Virus record (IMG/VR): IMGVR_UViG_3300041809_003414 | Coordinates: 1-53,276 of that record | DNA: 53,276 nt | Source of the DNA: a virus | Lineage: Duplodnaviria; Caudoviricetes | Strand: one strand, 5' to 3' | Part shown: piece after piece, positions 2,579 to 36,984 of the stretch | How positions within the stretch are numbered: the stretch's first letter is position 1 | Layout of the letters: every line of letters starts with the position of its first letter | Position numbers and translations under genes: made by a program | The notes under the pieces: generated by a model | Databases searched by the model: none | The model's input: the letters and a program-made list of their open reading frames with translations, nothing else | What the model was told of the DNA's origin: nothing

Positions 2579-5500
2579 TTACACCGCCAGCAACGTTGGC
2601 GTTCCGGCAAGAACGCCTCTCCCGCGAACGAGGGCGCCGATTTGCCCCGGTCCGTAATTCGCGGTGCCCCTTGCGTTGGACGCCATGGTCGGATTGCACT
2701 CGCCGACCGCGTGAAACAAGCCGCCCGCCATGCCGAGCGCTTCAGACTCACCGCCGACCGTTTCAGCATCGTAAAGCGCGATGCTCAAGTATTCGGCGGT
2801 GCTCTCACCCTTGCAGTCTCCGGACGCGACCTTAGGAGAATATACCTGTGCAGCTGCGAGGCTCGCCCCACGGAGGGTGGCGATCAAGTGCAGGAGCGCA
2901 TAGGTGGCGACTGCCACAGCCGATCCGGGCGTATTGGGCATGGTTTTTCCATCGGCGCTGAAGATGCACTGCGTATCGCAGTCCATTTCCGGCGATGCGC
3001 CGTCGGCCTCGCCAGTCGGAGCGGTCCAGAGCGATGTGTCTGATCTAATGCTGCCGTCGCCCTCGGTCGAGCCGGTGGCCACCTTCAGACGCGCGCCCTC
3101 GATGCCGGTGACAGAGGAGGCGCCGGAGGCCGCCCCGGTGTCCGTGAATTCCTGCCCAGCGAGCCCCGCGAGCAGACTCGCGCCCTTGAGCAGGGCCGCG
3201 ACCAGGAACGAGATACTGATTCTCGCCGCCGCATAGCCATGGCCGGTCGCGGCGGCGTACACCCAGGCCGCGACGAAAGCTGAGGCGGTCGAGGAGCCCA
3301 GGAGCGAGCCGGTGGCGTAGACGAGGAGTGCGCCGCTCCCGGTGCTGGTCTTGAGGAAGGCCTCCAGGATCGTGATCACGTCGAGGAAGCTTTCACGATA
3401 GGTGTGGACCGCGCTCAGTGCGTGCAGCAGCGTGATCACATCCGCGAGAGAGGCGAACTGCTCATGCGACGCGCCGAATATTTCGCTGAGAGTGATCGAG
3501 TCCGTCCAGGCCTGCTGCTGCTGATAACTCAAGCTCGAAATGTCGCTAACCGAAAGCGAATCAAGGACTGCCTGCCAGTGGGTTAGGAGTGTGCCGGTCG
3601 AGTCCAGCACCGGCAGGGTATCGATAAGTGCCACCGGTTCGTGCCCGCGACTGGTCGAAAGGGTCTCCGCAAGCAAGACGACATCTGATACCGCGCCGCG
3701 CGCAAGTGCCTTCTGACTCGCATCCGACAGCGTGAAGGTGTCCGAATAAATGCCGGGCACGTAGGTGTGCGAAGTGGTGAAAGATTCGATCAGAGAGAAC
3801 AGATCCTTCGGCAGCTTACCGGGATTCTTGAAGAACACCTCGGCGAAGGTGCTGGTGAATGAATCAGTCAAAGTGCCGGCACCGCGCATACGATGCTCAA
3901 CAAATACGTCGGCAAAAACGGAATGGATCCCGGCCTCAGTCGCCAGCACGCGCGCGGTCTGCTTCGACACCTGTTCTGCCACCGTAAACTGATCCGAGAG
4001 GGTCATCGGAACGCTGAACGGAGTGATTGTGGGCATGACGTAGCAAACCATGGCCGTATAGGTCGCTGTAGGAGAGAAATTGGTGGTGTCCACATGAACA
4101 CCGGGGTTACCGACATTGACGTTGTAATCGAAGATGCCGCCAGACTCTGTGCTTCGAGCGTTAAATGAGGCGTGTCCTCCGTTACCGAACGGAAGCGTTG
4201 CTGTAGTCAACGACGACGCCGTGGAAACGCAGAACAGTTCCAATTCGTTCGAATTCGTCGGCGCTGACGCGGTGACGAACCCGGTCCCTACGGCGGACGA
4301 ATTATAATTCGTGGAGCTTACCGAATCGAACGGGTTTCCAGCAGCGGCGCCGGAAACAATAAAGTACCCAATGAGGTAATTGATGGCGCTTGAGAACGTG
4401 AAAGAAACGCTGGTTCCTGTGGTGCCGGTTGCTTGCCCTGCGTAAAAGAAGACCTGATATCCTCCGCTCGGAAAATAACTCGGACCTGCGTAAAACGTCA
4501 CGTTGGTGCAGCTTATGGAGGCAAAAGAGTGGGCTGAATTAGTGGCCACCATAATGATAAGAGTCTGGCCGGCAGACATCGCGGGAATCGTAAATCCAGC
4601 ACCGCTAGCAGAACCATCGCTGATCGTAAGCGTGGTCAGAACCGTGATCGTCCCCACGGCGGGCGCGTTCAGTGAACTCGTGTACGACTCCACCATGGCA
4701 AAGGCGTCGAGAACCGTGGAGCGGCTGGTCGCCTTCGAAATGCGCTCAGTCAGGCTGTAGGGATCTAAAAATGTCTTGGCGTTGATCGTCTGTGTTGCCA
4801 GGAACGATTCCGTAACGGTGAACGGATCTTTCGGATTCTTGCCGAACGCCCGCAAGATGCCCGAATCCGCCAAAGTGAACGTGTCTGCCACGTTTACCGG
4901 GGGTTGCCCACGATGCTGAACAAAGTTTTCCGTGATGGTCAACTGGTCGGAGTTGGTTCGCGATGTGCCCTTTCCAATGGTCTCTACCAACGAGAACGGG
5001 TCTGAAAGGCTTTTCGTCCAGAGGTTCCCTCCCAAATTGCCTTTGATGATGAAGATGATTCCGAAATAGGCTTGGCCTGAAAGAGCGCCATTGATGTCCT
5101 CAATCCTCGCGCTTAAGCCGGTCTCGTTGGTGTTGACGGGGCACGCGCACCATCCCATATTGGTTTGGGCTGGCGACCACGCGGTGAAGGTCTGCGAATA
5201 GTAAGTACCGAAACCGGTAGCGCTCAAATTACTGGACATGATGGCCGAGGTGTTCCACCAGAAGCATCCCACCAGCGCATCGCCGGCGTTGACGTTGATT
5301 CCGGTGACGACCGTCTGATTGGTGTTTTGGGGAAACGTGCCGGGAAGGTTTCCGCTCCCGGTGTATTGCGCCCGCAGCATGACGGGCTGGTTTGGAATTC
5401 CTTGCCATCTCTGCACATAGCCCGTCAGGTAACACGAGACGTTGTTGGTACACGTCAGGGTAGTGCCCGGAGTGCCGGTGGCAAATCCGATCCACAATTC

Positions 5501-23964: not shown

Positions 23965-24759
23965 CTACTGCAGCGTCACGACGGAATAGAACACGGTCAC
24001 GACCATGATGCCGTTGCCAGCAGTGAACGGCGCGGTGCCGTTGGTGATATTCAATCCGGCGGCAACCGGCGGCTGCACGACAGCGGACGGAACCGGCAGA
24101 ACGTTGAGACTCTGCGCCGCCGCAGTGACGGTCGCGGCGGGAATATTGGAGGAGTGCGGCGTAACCCCACCACCCTGATACGGGAGGCTGACCGCGCCGC
24201 CCCCGGCGAACTGAACGGTGCCCGGCTTGACCTCAACCGCAATCTGGTCGATGACCAACGCTTGGCCGGCAGCCGGCGCCGGCAGGATATTGACCGGTGC
24301 GGCGTTCATCCCCATGATCTGGGCAGCAGTGAGGGCGACGACCGCCTTTTGAAGCACAGACGGATCGAGATCGGCCGAGCCCACCGGGGTGAATCCGGTC
24401 GGGACCAGACGCACGCGCACGGTAAAATCGGTGGTCGCCCCACCAGGCGCCGCAGTTCCGCTGGCCTGGTCCAGCACCGCGAACCCGATTTCCTTGGTCG
24501 ACCCGCCCGTCGCCGTTAGCGTGTTGGCGGTGGTCAACTGCTGGTTGTTGTCCCAGTAGACCTTGGCGCCCGACACAAACGTACTGCCGTCCTTCGCCAA
24601 GTCGAAGACGCCCTCGACTACCAGTTCGCTGGAATCGCCGGGGTTCTGATTGTTGACCGAAACGCCGAAGACGTTGCCCACCTGGCAGCCGCCCCCACTC
24701 AGCAGAGCATAGGGCGCGGTCACAGTCAGGGTGTTACCTTTCTGAACGTAATTCTGCAT
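23965..24759 (-). CDS. DUF2190 family capsid cement / decoration protein with C-terminal extension
   Basis: MQNYVQKG.TLTVTAP...SG...VG..FGV...EGVFDLAK...G.KVYWD motif; AAGGGAG SD. Confidence 0.85.
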   Translation of the reverse strand: MQNYVQKGNTLTVTAPYALLSGGGCQVGNVFGVSVNNQNPGDSSELVVEGVFDLAKDGSTFVSGAKVYWDNNQQLTTANTLTATGGSTKEIGFAVLDQASGTAAPGGATTDFTVRVRLVPTGFTPVGSADLDPSVLQKAVVALTAAQIMGMNAAPVNILPAPAAGQALVIDQIAVEVKPGTVQFAGGGAVSLPYQGGGVTPHSSNIPAATVTAAAQSLNVLPVPSAVVQPPVAAGLNITNGTAPFTAGNGIMVVTVFYSVVTLQ

Positions 24760-24831
24760 TTTGGAATCTCCCTTGAGTTGTGGGGAGGGCGGTGTGTGCC
24801 GCCCCACCGGTTGTTTCGTCTCAGTGCTGCT

Positions 24832-27066
24832 CTACTCGCCGGCGTTTCGCTGCATGCCGCGATAGTCGATTCCGGCCGCACCGAAGTCCATGCGGGCCTT
24901 GATCTCAATACCGTCGATCTCGAAGCCCTGCTTGGTTTCGACGAATACGCCCTGCTGGCCCTCGAGGTAGCAGTACTCCACTGTGTCGATCTGCGCGGGA
25001 TCGGCGATCAGATACCAGCCACTCGCGCTCGCCGCATCCAAACGCGGCTCGACGATGGGCACCAAGCTGCGCACCCACTCCGGAACCACAGCTGTCGCGG
25101 TAGCGGAAGCGATGTTAATGGGATACACGAGCTGGAGCGCATAAGTTTCGAGCGCGGTCGGCACCGCGAGAAACCGCGGAACCAGATTGAGCGGGGTGCC
25201 CTGCGGTCCCTTCTGCTGCCGCATCGATTTGCGACCTTCGCCCAAAGCGAACAGCGGTCCCGTGCCAGCCGGAGTGCCGCCGTTTACGGTGGGATCGATG
25301 CTGCTGCCGGTACCGCTGAGCAGGTTGTTGTGAGCAACGGCGAAGAGCGCCGTGGCGATCTTGTCCCCGGCATAGATAGCCGCCGGATTGGAGGTGATGA
25401 TGCCCCACACCGTATCTGACTCCAGCCGCGCGGCAGCGACGCCCAGCAGAGCGGGGACGCGGGTGAACGCCTGCAGGTCGTCGTTGATGATGACCTTGCG
25501 AGTCAGCGCCACGATCTCGCCGTAAGTGGCGAGTGCGTAGCTGATGTTGTTGTCAGTGAGCAGCGCACGATGGTACTCGCCCTTTTCATTCAGCTTCTGT
25601 AGAGACGGTGCATCGGCCAGCATCACCCGATTGATAGGCTTGAAGTCGGCCGCCGTCATCTGCCGGCAGAACGGCTGGAAGGTGCGGGGATAGGCTTCGT
25701 ATCCCTGACGCAGGGTCTTGTTGGCAACATTCGCGAGAATTGCCGGGAAGTCGGAGGTCGACTCGGCGCCATCAAAGAACTCCACGCCGCGCGACGGGGC
25801 GCGGAGCGCCAGTTCCGCGATACGGCGCGCGTCCATTCCCCTGGGATCGATGCCCTTGAGTTGCAGAAACTCTTTGGCCATCTCGATGAGTTTGAAGTTG
25901 CGGTATTCCCGCCCCATCTCCTCGGCCTGCGCTTGCTGTTTCTCTCCACATCCGCCCAGGAATTGGCCGCTTACCGGGTGGCGATTTAAGAAGAAACGGC
26001 TATCGGCCCTCAGGAGCAACGACATCTGCATGCAACCGAGCCGCTTCTCCACGGCGTCGCCGCCGCGGCCGCTGCTCGCGGCGCCGACGGGGGTAATCGG
26101 CGGCTCCGCGCCCTTCTTCGCGAGCTTGTTGAGAATCTCCTTGCCCGCCACGTCGGCCGAGACGCCCTTCGCGATGAACTGGCTAATGAGAGTCTTGTCG
26201 ACGCCCTGGATGGTGCCCAGCGCCTCGATATCGGCGACGCGCTTGCGTTCGGCTTGGACCGCCTCTTCCCGCGCGGCGGCCAAAGCCTGTTCGTCTATTA
26301 CACGGGCTTCCGTGCCCGTCTCCTGCGCCGTCTCAGGCATTGCAGGTTTCTCCTTTCGCGGGCTAATTGCCCGAAGTGCATCCAACACGCCGGAGTCCGG
26401 CGTGCCGAAAACCGCGATTTCCCCGGTGGGTTGGGCACTGAGAAAACACGTATTGAAATCGGCCGGCACCGTGCAGGGGGAGATCTCGAACGGCTCCCAA
26501 TCAGTGGCCGTAAACATGCCGACTTCCTGGTTGTTCAGGTACGGCGGCTTTCCCTCCGGCAGGCCCTCGGTCTGCATGTCGGTCTTTTCCCGCTTATAAA
26601 TAAAGGTGCCGAAGCTGAGGTTCTGAAGGATGCCGGTGCTGGCCTTCCGGAACATCTCGGTCGCGTCCGGATCACCCATGTCGAACTGCAGCGTGGCCAT
26701 CCCCTTGTCGCCGTTCGGCCAGGCCCGCCGCACCACGCCCACCTGGGCCCGCGTGCCAACCTTGCCGGCTACCAGCGATTTGAAATCGTCGCCGGTAAAA
26801 TGGGTATCGAAGACCGGCGCACCGTTGTTCAGCCGGTCGAAGCGACAGCCGTCCATCGAGAGCTTCAGCATGTACGGCTCGCCGGTGGAGCGATCGATCC
26901 TGGGTACGAATGCCCCGCTGTACCAGACGACGTCGATGGTTCCATCCTTGGCATTCGCGGTCGACGGTAGCACCTGCGCATCGGCAGCGAACACTTCCGA
27001 GTTCGGCGCGGCGGGCGGTGGCGCGCCCGTGTCCCTGTGCAAGTATTCGGTTGTGAGAAGCGGCAT
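24832..27066 (-). CDS. Prohead protease / major capsid protein fusion
   Basis: N-terminal protease (DTH...LSFG...WEPFEIS..VPAD), helical scaffold linker, C-terminal HK97-fold capsid (STSDFP.IL.NVANK.L, IINDDL.AF, D.GAA.ID.RG). Confidence 0.92.
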   Translation of the reverse strand: MPLLTTEYLHRDTGAPPPAAPNSEVFAADAQVLPSTANAKDGTIDVVWYSGAFVPRIDRSTGEPYMLKLSMDGCRFDRLNNGAPVFDTHFTGDDFKSLVAGKVGTRAQVGVVRRAWPNGDKGMATLQFDMGDPDATEMFRKASTGILQNLSFGTFIYKREKTDMQTEGLPEGKPPYLNNQEVGMFTATDWEPFEISPCTVPADFNTCFLSAQPTGEIAVFGTPDSGVLDALRAISPRKEKPAMPETAQETGTEARVIDEQALAAAREEAVQAERKRVADIEALGTIQGVDKTLISQFIAKGVSADVAGKEILNKLAKKGAEPPITPVGAASSGRGGDAVEKRLGCMQMSLLLRADSRFFLNRHPVSGQFLGGCGEKQQAQAEEMGREYRNFKLIEMAKEFLQLKGIDPRGMDARRIAELALRAPSRGVEFFDGAESTSDFPAILANVANKTLRQGYEAYPRTFQPFCRQMTAADFKPINRVMLADAPSLQKLNEKGEYHRALLTDNNISYALATYGEIVALTRKVIINDDLQAFTRVPALLGVAAARLESDTVWGIITSNPAAIYAGDKIATALFAVAHNNLLSGTGSSIDPTVNGGTPAGTGPLFALGEGRKSMRQQKGPQGTPLNLVPRFLAVPTALETYALQLVYPINIASATATAVVPEWVRSLVPIVEPRLDAASASGWYLIADPAQIDTVEYCYLEGQQGVFVETKQGFEIDGIEIKARMDFGAAGIDYRGMQRNAGE

Positions 27067-27075
27067 AGTTTGCGC

Positions 27076-27564
27076 CTATTCCTTCACCGCGTTGACCGCG
27101 ATGTAGTCGTTCTCGCCCAGCTTCTTCAGCTGGAAGATCTGTTTCTGGAGCCAGCAGATGTGACCTTTGAACTTGTCGTCGCCCTCGCGATGCCACTTTG
27201 AAAGGTGCTGGTAGAAGTGGAAGTTCGACATGTCGCCGGCCTCGTAGCACTGCTTACAGAGTTCGGCGAAGCGAGAAGCGGCGGCCTGCTCGGCGTCGAA
27301 CGCGCCGTTCAGCATGTCGCCAATGCTGTCGTGGGTCGTCGCCGGCTTCGGATTGAGCGTCGGCGCCCCCTCGAGAAACAACAGCCGGCTCGTGAGGCAC
27401 TTCATATGGTCTTCGCACTGCTCGTGCAGCAGTTTGAAGCCATCGGCCAAGTCGAGTCCAAGCCGTTTCAGGTCCCGCTGGTCGAGAAGGTATTGCAGCA
27501 TCAGTGTTGCCTCGACGGTGACGGCTTCCTGAAGGCCGGCCATTACCTCCGAATTTCCCTTCAT
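27076..27564 (-). CDS. Bacterioferritin-like (ferritin-fold) protein
   Basis: MKG..V...L....E.....QY, H....RLLFLEG.P, EML/DML.....E and GHI.WL..Q..L...LG..DY align with bacterioferritin; AAGGGGGAG SD. Confidence 0.85.
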   Translation of the reverse strand: MKGNSEVMAGLQEAVTVEATLMLQYLLDQRDLKRLGLDLADGFKLLHEQCEDHMKCLTSRLLFLEGAPTLNPKPATTHDSIGDMLNGAFDAEQAAASRFAELCKQCYEAGDMSNFHFYQHLSKWHREGDDKFKGHICWLQKQIFQLKKLGENDYIAVNAVKE

Positions 27565-27593
27565 GGGTTTCTCCCCCTTTTCTTGAGATGGAT

Positions 27594-29303
27594 TTATCCC
27601 CGGTAGAGCCGGGTTGTGGATTGCCAACTCGTTGTCTCGCGGGTGATGCCAGCTACCAGGAGTTCCTTCACCATCGCTAGATCGTCCTCGGAAAGCGCGA
27701 GGCCCTGGCTGCCGGATGTTCCGCCAACAGGTTTGCTGGTCGGCGTTCGCTCCTCGGTATTCGCCGGTTGCTCCTGACCGCGCAGCGTAACGTTACGCGG
27801 ATCAACATCGAGGATGATTTCGAACTTATCCACCAGCTTGTTAAAGAGCGCGATCTGCTGAAGCTGCGTGGTCGGGTCGTACCCGTTCTCCAGCACTGCC
27901 TCAAACCAGGTCTTCCGGCCCATACGAACGTCCTTCAACACCGCCTCGGCATCTTTGACCGGATCCACGGACTCGAACCGCGGCGCCGTCCATTGCACGC
28001 TCCGAAGATGGACCTTCGGATCGTTCAACGCCGCGCGCGGAATCTTGCCCTGCAGAATGAGCACGTCGATGAATCGGCGCCACACCGGCATGCAGAAAAG
28101 TGGCATTAGAGTGAGCCAACGGTAATTTTCGACCGTGTTCCGGAAGCCCAACATGCCGCCGCGCCACGACGAATAATTCACCTGCGACATATCGCCGGTG
28201 CCGAGCTCGTAGGGTAGACCAATGCCGGCCATGATCCCTTGCAACTCGGTCATCTTATATTCGCGGTAGCCGCCGGCCGGAGGCGGGTTATTGAACTTGA
28301 TCTCCTGACCGGGCTTCAGATACTCCACCTGGCCGGGTTGGAACGTCTCGACAGCAAGCCCGCTCGAGGGATCGGTACCGGCGATGCCTACTGGATCGCC
28401 CTCGACACCTTCCGGTTGCGTCACGAATGCCGTAACGCAGGCCTCCACTTTTTTACGGACCCGTTCTGCGTCGCAGTAATCATCCAGATCGCGGATGGCC
28501 ATCATCACGGGCGCCAGCCACGGTACACCGCGCACCTGGCCGGGACGAAGCACGCGATAGGTGTGGAGGATCTGGTCCGCGGGCACCGGCTGGCTCACGA
28601 TGCCGCCGCGCGGATTGAGAATCAATACGCCACCCGGGTGATAGCTGAAAAGCCAGTACGCCACCCGGTGGCCGTCCTCATCGAACTGGACGCCTTCCAT
28701 CACATGGCCGTTCACGAGGCCCATCGTACGGGTCTGGTCCAGGAAGTCGGCTTCCAGCATCTGAAGCTGCAGCGGAACGCGAAGACCGGAATCTACCAGG
28801 CGCGGCCGGAATCGCGCGAGTGCCTCGCCGCTTTCGGCCATCGTCCGGACAGTCAACGTCTGCATGCCGTAGAAATCGAGGCGCTGCGGTTCGTCGCAGG
28901 CCTCGGCAAAATACGGCCATTCGTTATCAATGATCTGATCAATGGCAGTGGCCCCGGTTTTGGCTTTCGGCACGATGCCGGTTCCCACCACGTTGCCGGC
29001 CAGTTCCTCGACGGCGTGCGAGGCATACGGGTTATTCCGGATCAGATCCCGGCTGCGGTCGCGTAGCCAAATCAGTGCGCCCATCAACTCGACGTTGGCG
29101 TCGGTTGAACCGGCGTACCACCCGTAAGCGCGCCGGCCGGCAGTGGCGCCCTCGTAACGGAAGCGCTCCGCGTGACGGCGCCGATAGCCGTCGACGATCT
29201 CTCCGACCGCACGCTGCACAGCGTAGCGGCCCGAAGATGCGGATCGCGCGTTCCAGTCCCGGCGAAGCAGTGGTATGGGGCGCCTGATCAAATCAGAAGT
29301 CAT
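27594..29303 (-). CDS. Portal protein, lambda gpB family
   Basis: LRDRSRDLIRNNPYA, LQMLEADFL, RPGQVRGVPWLAPV, GDMSQVNYSS.R motifs. Confidence 0.95.
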   Translation of the reverse strand: MTSDLIRRPIPLLRRDWNARSASSGRYAVQRAVGEIVDGYRRRHAERFRYEGATAGRRAYGWYAGSTDANVELMGALIWLRDRSRDLIRNNPYASHAVEELAGNVVGTGIVPKAKTGATAIDQIIDNEWPYFAEACDEPQRLDFYGMQTLTVRTMAESGEALARFRPRLVDSGLRVPLQLQMLEADFLDQTRTMGLVNGHVMEGVQFDEDGHRVAYWLFSYHPGGVLILNPRGGIVSQPVPADQILHTYRVLRPGQVRGVPWLAPVMMAIRDLDDYCDAERVRKKVEACVTAFVTQPEGVEGDPVGIAGTDPSSGLAVETFQPGQVEYLKPGQEIKFNNPPPAGGYREYKMTELQGIMAGIGLPYELGTGDMSQVNYSSWRGGMLGFRNTVENYRWLTLMPLFCMPVWRRFIDVLILQGKIPRAALNDPKVHLRSVQWTAPRFESVDPVKDAEAVLKDVRMGRKTWFEAVLENGYDPTTQLQQIALFNKLVDKFEIILDVDPRNVTLRGQEQPANTEERTPTSKPVGGTSGSQGLALSEDDLAMVKELLVAGITRETTSWQSTTRLYRG

Positions 29304-29559
29304 CGAATCGCTTGAGCTTGAATCCCGGTTCCAAAATCATGAACTCGAGACCGAACTTCGCCCTCACCTCATCAAGCATTGCCTGCAGATTGTTGTAGGC
29401 GTCGGGAGACACTTCGAAGTCAGTCTCAATTACGTAGAGCTTCGAGGTGGGGAGTGTGGATTGTGGCCGAGGCTCCTTGGCCAGTTCCAGAAGGCTCTTC
29501 GGCCCGTTACCGCGCCAAGGGGTGCAAAGAAACCGAAGTATGACGCCTGCGATTCTCAT
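29293..29559 (-). CDS. Hypothetical protein
   Basis: 88 aa ORF overlapping the portal start. Confidence 0.5.
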   Translation of the reverse strand: MRIAGVILRFLCTPWRGNGPKSLLELAKEPRPQSTLPTSKLYVIETDFEVSPDAYNNLQAMLDEVRAKFGLEFMILEPGFKLKRFDDF

Positions 29560-29593
29560 TTCTCGAAGCGCCCCCGAATTTCCGCGAACGCGC

Positions 29594-29881
29594 TCATCGC
29601 TTGATCCTTTCCACGACGACAGCGGCGAACACCGTCACGGTTGCGGTCCAAAGAAGGCCCAGCACGGCGAGCGCGCCAGTGAGCCAAGCCCGCCATCGCT
29701 CCAACCGGGCGATGCGGTCCGAGTGTTGTGCACACAGGCCGGGCTGCCCATTACCGAGCAGCGTCTTCTGCATGGTTTCCATCACCGCCCGGGTCGCGGA
29801 CATCTCTGCGACAAGGTGCTCCACCGTCGTCCGCACGTCTTTGATTTCCGTAACCAAGTTCTCGCAATGCTCGCAGTGCAT
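29594..29881 (-). CDS. Coiled-coil plus C-terminal TM protein (XhlA/holin-like)
   Basis: LLGNGQPGL...RIARLERWR followed by a single TM helix. Confidence 0.6.
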   Translation of the reverse strand: MHCEHCENLVTEIKDVRTTVEHLVAEMSATRAVMETMQKTLLGNGQPGLCAQHSDRIARLERWRAWLTGALAVLGLLWTATVTVFAAVVVERIKR

Positions 29882-29886
29882 AGTCG

Positions 29887-30141
29887 TCACCACCTGTCAT
29901 AGAGCGTCGGTCCCGTGGGACCATCGCCACGCTTGTGCTGCGCGAACCGCACGCGGCTGCCGGTCTGGCCGCTAAGCTCGCGGATGTCCTCTTCGATCTC
30001 GGCCTTCGCTTTGCGCAGTTCGTCGACGGAGCGATACGTCACTTCACGGCCGTCCGGAAACCGCGCTTTCAAAGTCGGGTTGCCAAGCGCCTGATTAATG
30101 GCGTCGAGGTTCGCCTGCAGCTGCTGAAGCGTCAGTGCCAT
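29887..30141 (-). CDS. Head-tail joining protein gpW-like
   Basis: DGREVTYRSVDELRKA motif; before portal. Confidence 0.85.
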   Translation of the reverse strand: MALTLQQLQANLDAINQALGNPTLKARFPDGREVTYRSVDELRKAKAEIEEDIRELSGQTGSRVRFAQHKRGDGPTGPTLYDRW

Positions 30142-30252
30142 GTCAGGACCGCCCTATTCGCCTTTCCATCGGGTTTGCCGATTGATTTTTCGCGAGAAGT
30201 GCGCACATTTCCCTTGAGCTTTCCCGCGAACAGAGTGATGAATCGAGGTGCC

Positions 30253-30435
30253 ATGAAAAAGGCCGATATACAGGTCGGATTGACTTACATCGCCAAGGTT
30301 AGCGGTGTGCTGGCTAAGGTTCGCATCACCGGCGAATCGCCGTACGGCGGCTGGCGCGGAACCAATTTGGCAACCGGACGCGAGATTCGTATCCGGTCGG
30401 CGGCTCGCCTGCGCCGCACCGTAAACGAGCAGTAG
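30253..30435 (+). CDS. Small basic hypothetical protein (60 aa)
   Basis: GAGGTG SD; MKKADIQVG.TYIAKVSG...GGW.GTNLATGREIRIRSA.RLR. Confidence 0.7.
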   Translation: MKKADIQVGLTYIAKVSGVLAKVRITGESPYGGWRGTNLATGREIRIRSAARLRRTVNEQ

Positions 30436-30451
30436 AGAGGAGACCACCACA

Positions 30452-31093
30452 ATGACGCTTTTTGCAATCGACGCAGACAACAACATCACCACGTACCCTG
30501 CAGCCGAGAAGATCCCGGAAGGCCAGGAACGGTTCACCAACGAAAAGGAACTCGCCGCACTCGCCGGTAACTGGCCGGCGGATCGCTTGATCAGCGTTTG
30601 GAATAGCTTCGCCGGCGTGGCCGGCTTTGGTGCAGACCTCAAGCCGGTCAAAAAGTTCACGAACCGCAAAACGGCGATCGCCCGCATCTGGAAGGCCATC
30701 CAGAAACTCGACGGCGCATCCGAAGCCGGAACCACCGCCACAGCCGAAGCCGCCGCAGCAACGCCTGCGAAAGCCACCCCCAAAACGCCGAAGGGCACGC
30801 GGAAAGCCGCCAAGGGCGCGCCCACGAAGGCGAAGGCTACCAAGACTACCAAGTCCGCCAAGAAAGCCACCGGGGCGCCCGTACCGCGCGAGTTTTCGAA
30901 GAAGGCCGCCGTCATCGACATGCTGCGCCGCAAGGGCGGCGCGACCCTGGAGGAGATTGCCAAGGCTACCGACTGGCAAAACCACACCATTCGGGGCTTC
31001 GTGTCCGGCACGCTCACCAAGAAAATGGGCCTGAACGTCGAGAGCGCCAAGAACGCCGACGGCGCGCGTTACTACCGGATCACCAGCAAATAG
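30452..31093 (+). CDS. DUF3489 domain protein (C-terminal winged HTH)
   Basis: SKKAAVIDMLRRKGGATLEEIAKATDWQNHTIRGFVSG motif; K/A-rich linker; GAGGAG SD. Confidence 0.85.
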   Translation: MTLFAIDADNNITTYPAAEKIPEGQERFTNEKELAALAGNWPADRLISVWNSFAGVAGFGADLKPVKKFTNRKTAIARIWKAIQKLDGASEAGTTATAEAAAATPAKATPKTPKGTRKAAKGAPTKAKATKTTKSAKKATGAPVPREFSKKAAVIDMLRRKGGATLEEIAKATDWQNHTIRGFVSGTLTKKMGLNVESAKNADGARYYRITSK

Positions 31094-31119
31094 CCCGGTC
31101 CCAATGCTTGGGCTTCCCG

Positions 31120-31143
31120 CCGCCGCCCGGAAACGGGCGGCGG
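31120..31143 (+). terminator. GC-rich hairpin between convergent genes
   Basis: CCGCCGCCCG-GAAA-CGGGCGGCGG 10-bp stem followed by TTGTCGTTT. Confidence 0.65.
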
Positions 31144-31174
31144 TTGTCGTTTATGCAGCGTCCTTCGCCATGCC

Positions 31175-32413
31175 TTAAGCCACTTCGTCAAACGTCCGGC
31201 CGGACCCCTCGTGCCGCGCCTGTTTCCCGGTCCATTGCTGCCAGCGACGGATCACAACGTCGCAGTACTTCGGGTCCAACTCAATCAGTCGCGCCTGGCG
31301 GCCGGCCTTTTCGCAGGCGATAGCGGTTGTGCCACTGCCGGCAAAGGGATCGAGGATCGTGTCGCGCGTTTTGCTGCTGTTGCGGATCGCACGCTCGACC
31401 AGCTCGACCGGTTTCATAGTCGGATGTTCCTGGTTGCTCGCAGGACGTTTGATGAACCAGATGTCGCCCTGGTCGCGGGCCCCACACCAGAAGTGGTCCA
31501 CACCGTCGCGCCAGCCGTACAGAATCGGTTCGTACTGACGCTGATAATCAGATCGACCCAGCGTGAAGTGATGCTTGGCCCAGATCACAAACGTCGACCA
31601 ATGCCCGCCGGCATCCGTGAATGCCTGGTGGAGCGTGTGCAGTTCCGACGAGGACATGCAGATGTAGATGGCGCCTTTGCAGACCGTCAACATGTTTGTC
31701 GACGCGTCGCGCAGGAAGTCGTAGAACTGCTCGCCCAGTTTGTCGTTCTGGATCTTGAGTTTCTTTGCCGTCTTCCCTTCGTAGGCGACGCCATACGGTG
31801 GATCGCTGAAGACCATATCGGCCAACCCGCCAGCCATGACCTTCTCCACGTCTGCGAGCACCGTAGCATCGCCGCAAAGCAGGCGGTGCTCGCCCATCAC
31901 CCAAACGTCGCCGGTAACCGTGACGACAGTTTCCTGGGCCTCCGGTGCCGCTTCGTCCTCGCTCAGGCCCGAAGTGCTCTCTTCTGGATCTACCAGGATC
32001 TCGTCAAGTTCCTCGGGGCTGAATCCCACCAGTTCCAGGTCGTACTCGACGGCCTTCAGCGACTCCAGTTCGACGCGCAACATCTCGTCGTCCCACCCGG
32101 CATTGGTCGCAATCTTATTGTCGGCCAGCACCAGCGCGCGCCGATCGTCCTCGCTGAGATGGTCGAGGACGATGACTGGAACCTCGGCAAGACCGAGCTT
32201 ACGCGCAGCCGCCAGGCGGGCGTGGCCTGCGATGATGATGTTGTCGCTGCCGACGAGGATCGGATTGGTCCAGCCAAACTGGCGCATGCTCGCGGCGACC
32301 TGGGCTACCTGCTCGTCGGTATGGGTCCGTGCGTTCCGGATGTACGGCAGCAGTCGGTCCACCGGCCAGATTTGGATGTGGAGATTGCGAAGGCGCTCAA
32401 TGATGTCCAACAT
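31175..32413 (-). CDS. ParB-like domain / DNA methyltransferase (DPPY, likely N6-adenine)
   Basis: NARTH...IIAGHARL ParB-N; FSDPPY, HPTMKPVELV, DPFAGSGTT. Confidence 0.92.
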   Translation of the reverse strand: MLDIIERLRNLHIQIWPVDRLLPYIRNARTHTDEQVAQVAASMRQFGWTNPILVGSDNIIIAGHARLAAARKLGLAEVPVIVLDHLSEDDRRALVLADNKIATNAGWDDEMLRVELESLKAVEYDLELVGFSPEELDEILVDPEESTSGLSEDEAAPEAQETVVTVTGDVWVMGEHRLLCGDATVLADVEKVMAGGLADMVFSDPPYGVAYEGKTAKKLKIQNDKLGEQFYDFLRDASTNMLTVCKGAIYICMSSSELHTLHQAFTDAGGHWSTFVIWAKHHFTLGRSDYQRQYEPILYGWRDGVDHFWCGARDQGDIWFIKRPASNQEHPTMKPVELVERAIRNSSKTRDTILDPFAGSGTTAIACEKAGRQARLIELDPKYCDVVIRRWQQWTGKQARHEGSGRTFDEVA

Positions 32414-35037: not shown

Positions 35038-36984
35038 TTAAGAATTGGACCGGCGCTCAAGCCAATCCTGCCGCTCGATCCACGGTCGCCGCTCCTGGCG
35101 GCCAGCGGATTGGGCCGCCGATTGTCCGTGCCCTTCCTCGCCGGCGGATTTCGCCGCCATCAGCGCCTCAATATGCTGCGCCTGTTTATTCAGTCGGAAC
35201 CGACCGGCAATTAATGATTGCAGCGCGGCGTACGCATAGCATCTGGCGTCAATCGCCTCGTTGCGGGCGCCGGCCTTCTTCGTCCACTCTCGACTGGCGA
35301 AACCTTTGGTGTACCGCACCCGGCAAGTCTCGGCCGTGAGTTGCTCGAAGTATCCCTGATCGTATTGGTCGCTGATGGGAAAGTGGCAGAAACCCGGCCC
35401 CGGCTCGGTAATCTTGAGACGCGCATAGAGCGCTTCTTTGGCCGCGTCGACACCGATGACCCATAAGGGGCGATTGTCTTTGGCCTTACTGTGCATCCGA
35501 GGCCAAATCGGACGCTGTCCAGCCGCACCCTTGATCGGGTACATCTTCGGTAACGCCCTTCGGCGCCCCCGGTCACTACAAAACTGCTGCACGATCGGTT
35601 GGTGAAACCCGGAGTCCACGCACGCCGCGGCGATCTCCATTTCCTGGCCGCACGGGTGTTCGAATGTCAGCGACAGCACCTGATCGAACCCGTCCCACAG
35701 GTCGCGTTGCGCCGGATCTCCCGGAAGAACGATGTACGCCAGGGACCAAGACTCCTCGTCGCGCCCCCAACCCACGATCTCCATTTCAATTCGATCGGCC
35801 TGTAAATCCGCACCCACGGTAATCAGCACCACACCGGCTGGAAGCATGACTTCCGCACGGTATGGTTGTCGCCGGCCCAGTAGCTCGCTAGCGTCGGTTT
35901 TTGTCGCACCGGCCTGCTGGAACGTCTCCGCCAGGATCGTATTCGTGAAGGTCTGCATCCTCTCGGGGGACTTGCGGGCGCGCAAGAAGTCCTTCGCGAG
36001 CTGCGACCAGATGGTCCACGGCGAATACAACGCGTTGAGCCAGAACCCGGCTGTTTCGCCATCACCCGCCGCCTCCGCCCGCCACTCGCCGCGCTCCAGC
36101 ATCGCGGCTTTCTGGTGGTCTGCAATATGCCCTTGGCAGCGTTCGCACTCATACCACGCGTCGGCGGGTTTGCGGTCGGGCCACTTCACTCCGCTCCAGC
36201 GCAGGATCTGGAAGACTCCGCAGTGCGGGCAGGGCACGTAATACTTCCGCTGGTCGGACTCCAGGTACGCCTGCTCGATGCGGCTGGCCTCCGCAATCGT
36301 CGGCGTCGATACCATCGCGATCTGGCGGTTGGCGAACGTTGCGGTGCGCCGGATCGCGAGATCCACGGGGTCGCCTTCCTCCGTGCCCGCCGCACCGGAC
36401 GATGCCGACGGCGGATACGCGTCCACCTCATCCATCAGCAGGAACCGCGCCGGCATGGACCGCAGGCCCACGGAGCTATTAGCGCCCGTGACCACGAGGA
36501 CTCCGCCCGGAAATTCCTTCGCCAGGATTGTGTTGCCGGAATCGCGTTCGCGCGGGTCTGATACCCGTTGAGCCAGCACAGACGTGTTATCAATCAGCGA
36601 AGCAATCCTTTGGCGGGAAAACCGTTTCGCAAGCTCGACCGTCGGCTCCACCAGCATCGTCGGGCCGGGCGCATAGTGGATGATGTAGCCCAGCATGTTT
36701 AGCAGGACTTCGGACCCGCCAATCTGGGCCGGCTTCATGTAGACTACGCGCGAGAACGGCGACGACGGACTGAGGCAATCCATGATCTCGCGTAGGAACG
36801 GCGTGCGAGACGTGCGCCAGCGGCCAGGTTCGCCCGCCGACACACGAGAGAGCACGCGGTACTGATCGCTCCATTCGCCGATCGTGAGTTCCGGGTCCGG
36901 CCGCAGCGCGCCGGCGAACGCCTCGCGAATGCCGGCGAGGATTATCTCCGGCGTCACTGCGTGCTCAGAGGGTGCTGATGGCAT
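35038..36984 (-). CDS. terL: Terminase large subunit, lambda GpA family
   Basis: G.WRTSRTPFLREIMD, KPAQIGGSE, LMDEVDAY, STPT, CPHC/CERC, GADLQADRIE, RNEAID. Confidence 0.96.
   Translation of the reverse strand: MPSAPSEHAVTPEIILAGIREAFAGALRPDPELTIGEWSDQYRVLSRVSAGEPGRWRTSRTPFLREIMDCLSPSSPFSRVVYMKPAQIGGSEVLLNMLGYIIHYAPGPTMLVEPTVELAKRFSRQRIASLIDNTSVLAQRVSDPRERDSGNTILAKEFPGGVLVVTGANSSVGLRSMPARFLLMDEVDAYPPSASSGAAGTEEGDPVDLAIRRTATFANRQIAMVSTPTIAEASRIEQAYLESDQRKYYVPCPHCGVFQILRWSGVKWPDRKPADAWYECERCQGHIADHQKAAMLERGEWRAEAAGDGETAGFWLNALYSPWTIWSQLAKDFLRARKSPERMQTFTNTILAETFQQAGATKTDASELLGRRQPYRAEVMLPAGVVLITVGADLQADRIEMEIVGWGRDEESWSLAYIVLPGDPAQRDLWDGFDQVLSLTFEHPCGQEMEIAAACVDSGFHQPIVQQFCSDRGRRRALPKMYPIKGAAGQRPIWPRMHSKAKDNRPLWVIGVDAAKEALYARLKITEPGPGFCHFPISDQYDQGYFEQLTAETCRVRYTKGFASREWTKKAGARNEAIDARCYAYAALQSLIAGRFRLNKQAQHIEALMAAKSAGEEGHGQSAAQSAGRQERRPWIERQDWLERRSNS

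Follow-up and report, generated by a model that had tools for sequence, protein, structure and literature searches.

A phage-borne branch of the bacterioferritin family with a rebuilt metal centre, encoded between portal and head-protease genes

The stretch of DNA analysed here, hereafter the window, is an IMG/VR provirus record (IMGVR_UViG_3300041809_003414; 53,276 bases, estimated to be 84% complete) and represents a prophage of peat-soil Acidobacteria, the record itself having no attached host genome. Between its portal gene and a gene for a fused head-maturation protease and major capsid protein lies an open reading frame (ORF) for a 162-residue protein with the fold of bacterioferritin (Bfr). 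We assign this protein to a phage-only ferritin branch that had not been described before, in which the di-iron ferroxidase centre, as read from aligned ligand positions, is systematically rebuilt and whose genes occupy a nearly constant address in the head operon. A phage-specific Bfr-family protein with these two properties is new; it may bind metal and may be present in the particle. We are highly confident of the identity and the genomic context of the protein. That it protects the virion by binding metal is a tentative proposal, and the statement as a whole, i.e., a head-associated metal-binding accessory protein with that identity, context and mechanism, falls just short of being probable. 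It nevertheless ranks first among the readings considered, ahead of a free cytoplasmic late iron/redox buffer and, third, a non-metal assembly helper.

The window protein has a complete bacterioferritin fold

The Pfam Ferritin profile (PF00210) matched residues 9-135 of the window protein with an E-value of 6.7e-11 and 42.7 bits against a cut-off of 24.5 bits, which places it in the ferritin-like superfamily, while the bacterioferritin equivalog model TIGR00754 scored 33.9 bits against a cut-off of 125.55. The closest solved relatives by sequence were all Bfrs (E about 1e-7 to 1e-5). In an AlphaFold2 model (34 relatives; predicted local distance difference test score 96, predicted template-modelling score 0.91), helices were placed at residues 5-34, 39-63, 81-108, 112-126/135-149 and 151-159, giving the complete Bfr fold including the short C-terminal helix E, with helix D interrupted at residues 127-134. 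Foldseek comparison of this model with the Protein Data Bank (PDB) returned Bfrs and close ferritins as top matches (template-modelling score, TM, 0.90-0.92; root-mean-square deviation 1.1-1.5 Å; 22-27% identity). A ferritin fold had already been proposed in a first-pass annotation of the window, and both the profile and the structure comparison with Bfr bear it out.

Like the Bfrs of Brucella abortus (8sqr) and E. coli (1bcf) and the heteromeric 9iig and 9h1u, the window protein combines a four-helix bundle with a short fifth helix over its full length, has the same N-terminal start and retains the equivalents of Glu18, Tyr25, Glu94, His130 and Trp133. It is less acidic than Bfr, and its gene lies in a phage head operon rather than being a cellular iron-storage gene. 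The chain begins at helix A and ends right after helix E, and neither the alignment nor the AlphaFold2 model shows a linker or targeting peptide at either terminus. Conservation of helix E and of the B-C loop is close to that in canonical Bfr (entropies of 2.19 vs 2.14 bits and 2.70 vs 2.60 bits, respectively, in phage-type and canonical proteins), as would fit an oligomer that has been retained. Within the clade described below, conservation peaks in the first half of helix D (1.90 vs 2.21 bits in canonical Bfr).

The protein does not resemble Dps. The best Dps chain in the PDB search, 2chp_A, matched at E=1 and 13 bits; the predicted isoelectric point is 5.6 (clade median 5.66), there is no terminal extension or basic tail, and a Bfr-type fifth helix is present. 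As a separate observation, the window protein has five cysteines (clade median two, vs one in canonical Bfr), and a Cys-x-x-Cys motif in helix C (residues 103-106) is kept in closer relatives, many others keeping the second Cys only.

Relatives form a phage-borne sister clade of canonical Bfr

A word-indexed search retrieved 76 protein clusters at 41-94% identity, nearly all metagenomic and one named from a Bryobacteraceae metagenome-assembled genome (MAG). Profile searching of 1.84 billion representatives yielded 744 matches at E<=1e-3, of which 100 reached <=1e-10 and 9 reached <=1e-30. These include a second subgroup of 152-159 residues with a related helix-D motif, usually without the helix-D insertion of the window protein. 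The ESM Atlas returned only ferritin/Bfr clusters plus two mostly viral ferritin/Dps-like clusters, which we treat as leads.

For phylogeny, 131 rows were analysed, namely 26 chosen members of the window protein's own subgroup, the other fetched representatives from P0086 onward of 140-175 residues, and the Bfr of a prophage-bearing host MAG; rows outside this length range were excluded, as were two artefactual long proteins. A quick IQ-TREE search (LG+G4, midpoint root for drawing only) split these rows with an SH-aLRT support of 99 into 58 phage-type and 73 canonical ones. The phage-type side comprises 25 and 20 rows of the two subgroups, as assigned by motif, plus 13 unclassified rows; the canonical side holds 63 rows with canonical motifs, 10 unclassified rows and, deep inside it, the host Bfr. 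On this tree the clade is a distinct phage-borne sister of canonical Bfr, in keeping with the first-pass view of a repurposed ferritin that is not a host protein.

Members occur on over 100 viral contigs. None of ten representatives had a credible match to a PHROG family (0/10), the best for the window protein (0.038) being a family of unknown function. All seven loci on genome contigs come from Acidobacteriota MAGs (Bryobacteraceae, Bryobacterales or Terriglobia). One of these, G001, carries such a prophage; its own repertoire comprises a canonical Bfr, in which the six di-iron ligands and Met52 are all present, as well as a further ferritin-like protein and a Dps. Among 301 sampled genomes of its phylum, family-level matches (273 and 106 bits) were found in G001 only; the other 18 matching genomes gave 75 bits or less, the level of canonical Bfr.

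The di-iron centre is rebuilt across the clade

Residues were numbered after the host Bfr, which carries E18, Y25, E51, M52, H54, E94, E127 and H130. Occupancy in the 73 canonical and 58 phage-type rows is as follows.

Position 18: canonical, Glu in 71; phage-type, Glu in 50
Position 25: canonical, Tyr in 70; phage-type, Tyr in 53
Position 51: canonical, Glu in 68; phage-type, Cys in 25, Ser in 15, Ala in 12, no Glu
Position 52: canonical, Met in 32; phage-type, no Met
Position 54: canonical, His in 68; phage-type, His in 10, Phe in 17, Tyr in 13, Trp in 9
Position 94: canonical, Glu in 72; phage-type, Glu in 53
Position 122: canonical, variable; phage-type, His in 55
Position 125: canonical, Lys in 14; phage-type, Lys in 47
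Position 126: canonical, Asp in 44; phage-type, Trp in 41
Position 127: canonical, Glu in 65; phage-type, His in 53
Position 130: canonical, His in 67; phage-type, His in 42

The window protein has E18, Y25, C50, E51, H53 and E92 at Bfr positions 18, 25, 51, 52, 54 and 94, and H120, K123, W124, H125 and H135 at positions 122, 125, 126, 127 and 130. Unlike Bfr, it thus lacks Met52, has Glu51 replaced by Cys and Glu127 by His, and carries a new His at 122; His54, present in the window protein, is not conserved across its clade. A further difference is a nine-residue insertion (residues 126-134) that splits helix D between His125 and His135. Canonical proteins have two residues between the equivalents of positions 127 and 130 (72/73), whereas phage-type proteins have either 2-3 (28/58) or 9-15 (30/58), and the relatives without the insertion place a His three residues before the His130 equivalent.

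Most residue assignments of the first-pass annotation hold in the host Bfr alignment: E18, Y25 and the equivalents of H54 (H53), E94 (E92) and H130 (H135) are present, and Cys50 and Glu51 stand in for E51 and M52. Its proposed change of E127 to Phe does not, as His125 occupies this position; the insertion reported there exists, although it follows His125 and counts nine residues rather than about seven.

The complete ligand set of a di-iron ferroxidase (Glu18, Glu51, His54, Glu94, Glu127, His130) is therefore absent from the window protein. The heme ligand is missing as well, Glu51 standing in place of Met52, which leaves no Bfr-type bis-Met heme site. Across the clade, the aligned positions point to a systematic rebuilding of the di-iron centre. 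With both bridging carboxylates gone, the site would no longer be a carboxylate-bridged di-iron ferroxidase; a putative His/Glu site would instead draw on E18, E92, H125 and H135, and perhaps H120.

The gene is integrated into the late head operon

The gene and its surroundings in the window are listed below.

27076..27564, minus strand: Bfr-fold protein of the phage-type clade, 162 residues (stop codon included in the coordinates; ATG at 27564)
27565..27593, minus strand: 29-nucleotide (nt) spacer from the portal stop to the ferritin ATG, with a purine-rich run resembling a Shine-Dalgarno (SD) sequence
27067..27075, minus strand: 9-nt spacer from the ferritin TAG to the protease-capsid ATG
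27594..29303, minus strand: portal protein of the lambda family (PF05136, 2e-102), immediately upstream of the ferritin gene
24832..27066, minus strand: fusion of head-maturation protease, scaffold-like linker and major capsid protein, 744 residues (phrog_4523, 8e-163; PF25209), immediately downstream
23965..24807, minus strand: head decoration protein (phrog_122)
29887..30141, minus strand: small head-tail adaptor (Ad1, gpW-like), upstream of the portal gene
35038..36984, minus strand: terminase large subunit (phrog_15), start of the packaging/head module

The minus-strand order is thus terminase large subunit, two ParB-methyltransferase genes, small adaptor, portal, ferritin-like gene, protease-capsid fusion, decoration protein and head-closure protein. 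The SD-like run of the capsid gene overlaps the last ferritin codons, and the ferritin TAG of the window is in frame with the capsid ATG. Scanning 24500-31500 for the sigma-70 consensus, the only promoter type sought, gave no promoter-like site (0 vs 1.2 expected by shuffling), and no terminator-like hairpin flanks the ferritin gene, eight being present in the whole of this interval against 6.4 expected. The gene has a GC content of 0.585 (neighbours 0.61-0.64) and a GC content at third codon positions (GC3) of 0.816 (neighbours 0.74-0.79). Across related loci the portal-ferritin spacer is mostly 23-37 nt and the ferritin-capsid spacer mostly 4-18 nt.

The ORF length, strand and both spacers agree with the first-pass annotation, as do the SD-like run and the lack of a promoter or terminator. 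Its view that the gene is not a moron is upheld too: the junctions are tight, GC3 is neighbour-like, the gene is present, rather than patchily distributed, in every close relative whose contig extends far enough, and its substitution pattern (see below) resembles that of the portal and capsid genes. The ferritin gene is an integral part of the late head operon. A contrasting case is found at locus L037, where a 1.26-kb insertion parts portal from ferritin and an opposite-strand 239-residue ORF (4746-5465, minus strand of the locus) with a signal-peptide-like N-terminus looks moron-like.

Contigs from four RNA libraries fell on 24500-30200. Run X16 contributed contigs that match the window exactly within the ferritin gene (27409-27559) and within the capsid and portal genes, and a diverged contig spans the ferritin/capsid junction. 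With a depth of about 2, no silent control stretch, possible DNA carry-over and contigs that cannot show one transcript, these data give a weak hint of expression, and stretches without contigs carry no information. Fifteen DNA runs containing at least 0.76 of the sampled words, from 15 coded studies, were all wetland (9) or peat (6) metagenomes; one of them may be the source sample.

The slot recurs across unrelated head modules

Close relatives of the window protein (70-92% identical) were located on 66 viral contigs, some of them near-duplicates. A portal gene lies directly upstream in 65/66 and a protease-capsid gene directly downstream in 65/66, both misses being contig ends. The order is also kept in the distant loci L083, L099, L106, L109 and L111, in which ferritin is 46-61%, portal 66-75% and capsid 38-52% identical to the window. 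In L084 the head module is a different one: a 58% identical ferritin gene follows the terminase and a PF04860 portal, whose stop it overlaps, and precedes a separate ClpP-type protease and a PF05065 capsid gene. L079 likewise has no homologues of the window's portal and capsid.

The second subgroup extends this picture to 37 viral loci. Portals account for 30/36 upstream ORFs (21 PF04860, 9 PF05136), the others being a MuF-like minor head protein, a capsid-like protein, an 814-residue protein with a transglycosylase segment, an ORF without a match, and two fragments, one of which joins the lambda-type portal BLAST cluster. Downstream, 21/32 ORFs fall into one BLAST cluster of head-maturation proteases and protease-capsid fusions; by family, phrog_133 was found in 16, phrog_53 in 11 and phrog_4523 in 10. 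Single cases are a protease, a capsid protein and a 1,517-residue unknown; five lack a PHROG match (L139, L147 and the cluster of L142, L145 and L146, scanned for L142 alone), and three small ORFs stood outside family assignment.

The portal-ferritin-capsid synteny of the first-pass annotation therefore recurs, including with a different portal family and with separate protease and capsid genes. The slot is nearly constant, after the portal and before a head protease or capsid gene, across two unrelated portal families. One second-subgroup gene is placed differently: in L119 (3555-11036) it sits between the 814-residue lytic-transglycosylase-like protein (phrog_873/7182) and the 1,517-residue ORF, a neighbourhood reminiscent of internal or ejected virion proteins, not of portal and protease.

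The gene is selected, exchanged in place and dispensable for this capsid type

In pairwise comparison with the window (Nei-Gojobori), the median ratio of nonsynonymous to synonymous substitution rates (dN/dS) was 0.119 for ferritin (n=79), somewhat lower for the portal (0.090, n=80) and somewhat higher for the capsid fusion (0.154, n=79). In the five closest loci, for which dS is unsaturated (0.38-0.57), the ferritin ratio is 0.085-0.133. The ferritin gene is under purifying selection as strong as that on its neighbours.

In L107, L108 and L110, ferritin dN is 0.33-0.35, compared with 0.09-0.10 for the flanking portal and 0.14-0.16 for the capsid gene, a roughly threefold and twofold excess, which indicates that the allele was replaced while the slot was kept. 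The ferritin gene is thus exchanged between phages as a cassette without leaving its slot.

A tblastn search with the capsid fusion against 50,697 phage records matched 124, all below 60% identity. In both cultured phages opened among these (2/2), Rhodobacter phage RcMamaDuck and Pseudomonas phage LPPA33, the portal ORF overlaps the protease-capsid ORF and the slot is empty. Searched with the ferritin protein, the same records yielded no more than two canonical bfr genes, each 27% identical and located on a large contig that bears an Acinetobacter phage label. Since cultured phages with the same portal and protease-capsid fusion lack it, the gene is accessory; the first-pass designation as a core head gene has to be given up.

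Apparent fusions to head proteins

Two relatives appeared longer than the window protein. Both contain frameshifted stretches of portal or capsid sequence and were rejected as assembly artefacts rather than genuine fusions. A third protein, P0083 (278 residues, a database fragment), joins the C-terminal 99 ferritin residues through four extra residues to an intact protease-capsid N-terminus; it reflects either loss of a stop codon or an assembly error, a single case unsupported by frame statistics across loci. In most loci the ferritin-capsid gap measures 8 nt (35 loci) or 10 nt (11 loci), and as these are not multiples of three, read-through fusion was rejected as a conserved mechanism. Co-folding of ferritin with the whole protease-capsid fusion scored 0.00 in two runs without controls, which speaks neither for nor against binding.

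A viral structure library contains long proteins of uncultured Caudovirales that match the ferritin model weakly (E 0.01-0.14). They are annotated as 'Prohead protease' (333, 432 and 763 residues), 'DNA-binding protein Dps' (290-622 residues) and, in another case, 'Ferritin/DPS protein domain containing protein' (679 residues), and may be fusions of ferritin domains to head proteins. Among the best 60 of 152 phage records matched by tblastn with a host Dps, no protease fusion was seen.

A proposed head-associated metal-binding accessory protein and its rivals

In the mechanism that we propose, the ferritin protein would be made late, together with portal and prohead protease, and would bind metal at its putative His/Glu site. 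Its place would be on or inside the head during assembly, as a minor or internal component loaded by something other than an encapsulin-style targeting peptide. There it would sequester iron or another redox-active metal, which may protect the particle or its packaged DNA in wetland and peat, where conditions are acidic and rich in iron. We count in favour of a head-linked role the fixed slot across unrelated modules and the translational proximity to portal and protease. By analogy, prohead-core and minor head proteins are encoded at this position in T4 and SPP1-like phages. Detection of a ferritin-like protein in megaphage G particles (PMC12484599) also counts in favour.

Several observations weigh against this reading. 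Ferritin alleles that share only 54-57% identity function alongside the same portal and capsid genes, and alleles about 58% identical serve entirely different head modules; such interchangeability argues against a tight, co-evolving interface with portal or capsid. A search for natural fusions to portal, protease or capsid, itself weak evidence, found none, including for P0105 of the second subgroup. Two integrated copies in MAG G001 are broken: one (L068, 6001-6489) has an in-frame TAG at the otherwise invariant Gln49 codon, and the other (L073, 5763-6585) is 5′-truncated and frameshifted, abutting ParB/methyltransferase fragments with the portal deleted. These copies suggest decaying prophages in the G001 host and imply that lysogens tolerate loss of the gene. 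The lack of a targeting extension and the dispensability of the gene for this capsid type likewise speak against a tight structural role. Being acidic and without a basic tail, the protein does not suggest Dps-like DNA binding, and a 24-subunit cage, if still formed, could not leave through the tail.

The strongest competitor, which we consider possible but doubtful, is a late auxiliary protein that stays free in the cytoplasm and never enters the particle. A soluble ferritin-like oligomer would buffer iron or reactive oxygen late in infection, e.g. while many genome copies replicate and are packaged, and the portal-protease junction would be no more than a tolerated, well-expressed place spread by module shuffling. 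The whole Bfr architecture including helix E is kept, as fits a self-contained oligomer, and so are E18, Y25, E94 and H130; the absence of a targeting extension, the interchange of alleles between unrelated head modules, the dispensability of the gene for this capsid type and the frequency of free-standing Dps-type genes in cultured phages (152 records) all fit as well. Yet this account leaves unexplained why a near-single slot is used across two portal families and both fused and unfused protease-capsid genes, all the more so as phage Dps-type genes sit elsewhere, near replication genes, according to PMC6669764 and record annotations. The catalytic di-iron centre needed for classical iron storage is dismantled, and the prophage-bearing host MAG already has a canonical Bfr, a ferritin-like protein and a Dps.

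A more specific form of the head-associated reading, in which a Bfr-derived metalloprotein is loaded into the capsid with the DNA as a 'virion ferritin', its di-iron ferroxidase turned into a His-rich metal trap, in wetland Acidobacteria phages and their relatives with other head modules, we judge unlikely.

Still less likely is a head-assembly helper that uses the ferritin fold as a mere scaffold, for instance a chaperone for portal incorporation or protease regulation, with the His/Lys/Trp stripe of helix D as a protein-binding surface rather than a metal site. Its appeal lies in the position between portal and protease, the tight coupling to the portal stop and the protease start, and the strong conservation at the start of helix D, where positions 122, 125 and 126 are His, Lys and Trp in 55, 47 and 41 of the 58 rows. 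Phages with the same module, however, assemble without ferritin, and the stripe is unchanged where the partner families differ between loci; retention of the buried ligands E18, E94 and H130 plus Tyr25 would moreover be puzzling if the protein had no metal or redox role.

The first-pass annotation had raised the possibility of a phage counterpart to encapsulin cargo loading. A version in which a targeting peptide at one terminus, or translation as a fusion with the capsid protein, directs the ferritin into the HK97-fold shell is very improbable. A ferritin-like gene does lie immediately upstream of an HK97-fold shell gene, its TAG is in frame with the capsid ATG in the window, and fragment P0083 reads from one into the other. 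The protein nevertheless spans helix A to helix E only, with no N- or C-terminal extension beyond the Bfr fold; the prevailing gaps of 8 or 10 nt do not conserve read-through, both 'longer' proteins are frameshift artefacts, and the presence of terminase, portal, adaptor and decoration genes marks the element as a full tailed-phage genome. Targeting-peptide and fusion mechanisms are thus largely refuted.

Recent capture of a host bfr, or a moron benefiting the lysogen through host iron storage, has a negligible chance of being right and was rejected on the tree and the site table: automatic JGI names for relatives read 'bacterioferritin (cytochrome b1)' and the best PDB sequence matches are Bfrs, but the equivalog score is far below cut-off, the branch with support of 99 parts the clade from canonical and host Bfr, the heme ligand and two to three di-iron ligands are gone, the gene is neighbour-like in composition without its own promoter or terminator, and it turned up in just 1/301 sampled host-phylum genomes, namely the prophage-bearing MAG.

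Relation to known systems

A full-text literature search, with subscription journals outside its reach, turned up no account of a Bfr-like gene within the head module of a phage. In encapsulin operons, a ferritin-superfamily cargo gene lies immediately upstream of the HK97-fold shell gene. The window resembles this arrangement in that its ferritin gene ends 9 nt upstream of an HK97-fold protease-capsid fusion, and differs in that the ferritin has no targeting peptide or linker and the shell belongs to a complete tailed phage with portal, terminase and protease. Prohead-core or minor head proteins are encoded between portal and protease or scaffold in other phages, e.g. T4 gp67/gp68, SPP1 gp7 and Mu F-like proteins. 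These occupy the same genomic slot as the ferritin, to which they bear no relation in sequence or fold, and are not metalloprotein folds; at L129, the ferritin-like gene is separated from the portal region by a gene for a MuF-like protein.

Dps-type proteins are likewise phage-encoded members of the ferritin superfamily, known from the Lactobacillus phage Semele group, N4-like coliphages and Bacillus megaphage G (gp346), and were among the weaker structural matches to the ferritin model in the viral library. They belong to a different branch and are free-standing, near replication genes where described, as in Lactobacillus phages (PMC6669764; record annotations). Unlike them, the window protein has the Bfr fifth helix and no basic tail, and its gene sits between portal and protease. 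The 152 cultured phage records with Dps-type genes include 89 Escherichia phages, many of about 75-78 kb; several of the matched genes are annotated 'integrase', an apparent mis-annotation. For megaphage G, PMC12484599 reports a ferritin-like protein detected by particle proteomics and discusses it as DNA protection. As a caveat for virion proteomics, host Bfr co-purifies with CsCl-purified virions (PMC9206674).

Other genes of the region

Inside the minus-strand late operon of the window, a lone plus-strand gene at 30452-31144 encodes a 213-residue protein of unknown function (phrog_10315). The strongest terminator-like hairpin of the region (31119-31144; 11 pairs, 10 of them G-C) comes after this gene, which is a candidate moron. 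Between terminase and portal region lie two consecutive, slightly overlapping minus-strand genes (33947->32415, 510 residues; 32497->31175, 440 residues), each encoding a fusion of a ParB-like nuclease domain and a DNA methyltransferase (phrog_498, 3e-110 and 2e-159).

Implications

Ferritins and phage head operons are among the best-studied systems, and their combination appears undescribed. The clade constitutes a natural experiment in rebuilding a di-iron centre, with Glu changed to His, Glu to Cys, Ser or Ala, His to aromatic residues, and a new His gained, and it offers a concrete candidate for a metal or redox function that is encoded by phages and linked to the assembly of their capsids. 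Should the protein prove not to be in the particle, it would still represent a new, widespread and strongly conserved phage accessory family with a fixed genome address. If it is in the particle, it would bear on virion survival in iron-rich acidic soils, on the proposed role of phages as iron carriers and on the evolutionary link between phage capsids and encapsulins. Phage particles would then carry their own metal or redox defence, and a virion ferritin, if true, would represent a living intermediate linking phage heads of the HK97 type to encapsulin compartments filled with ferritin.

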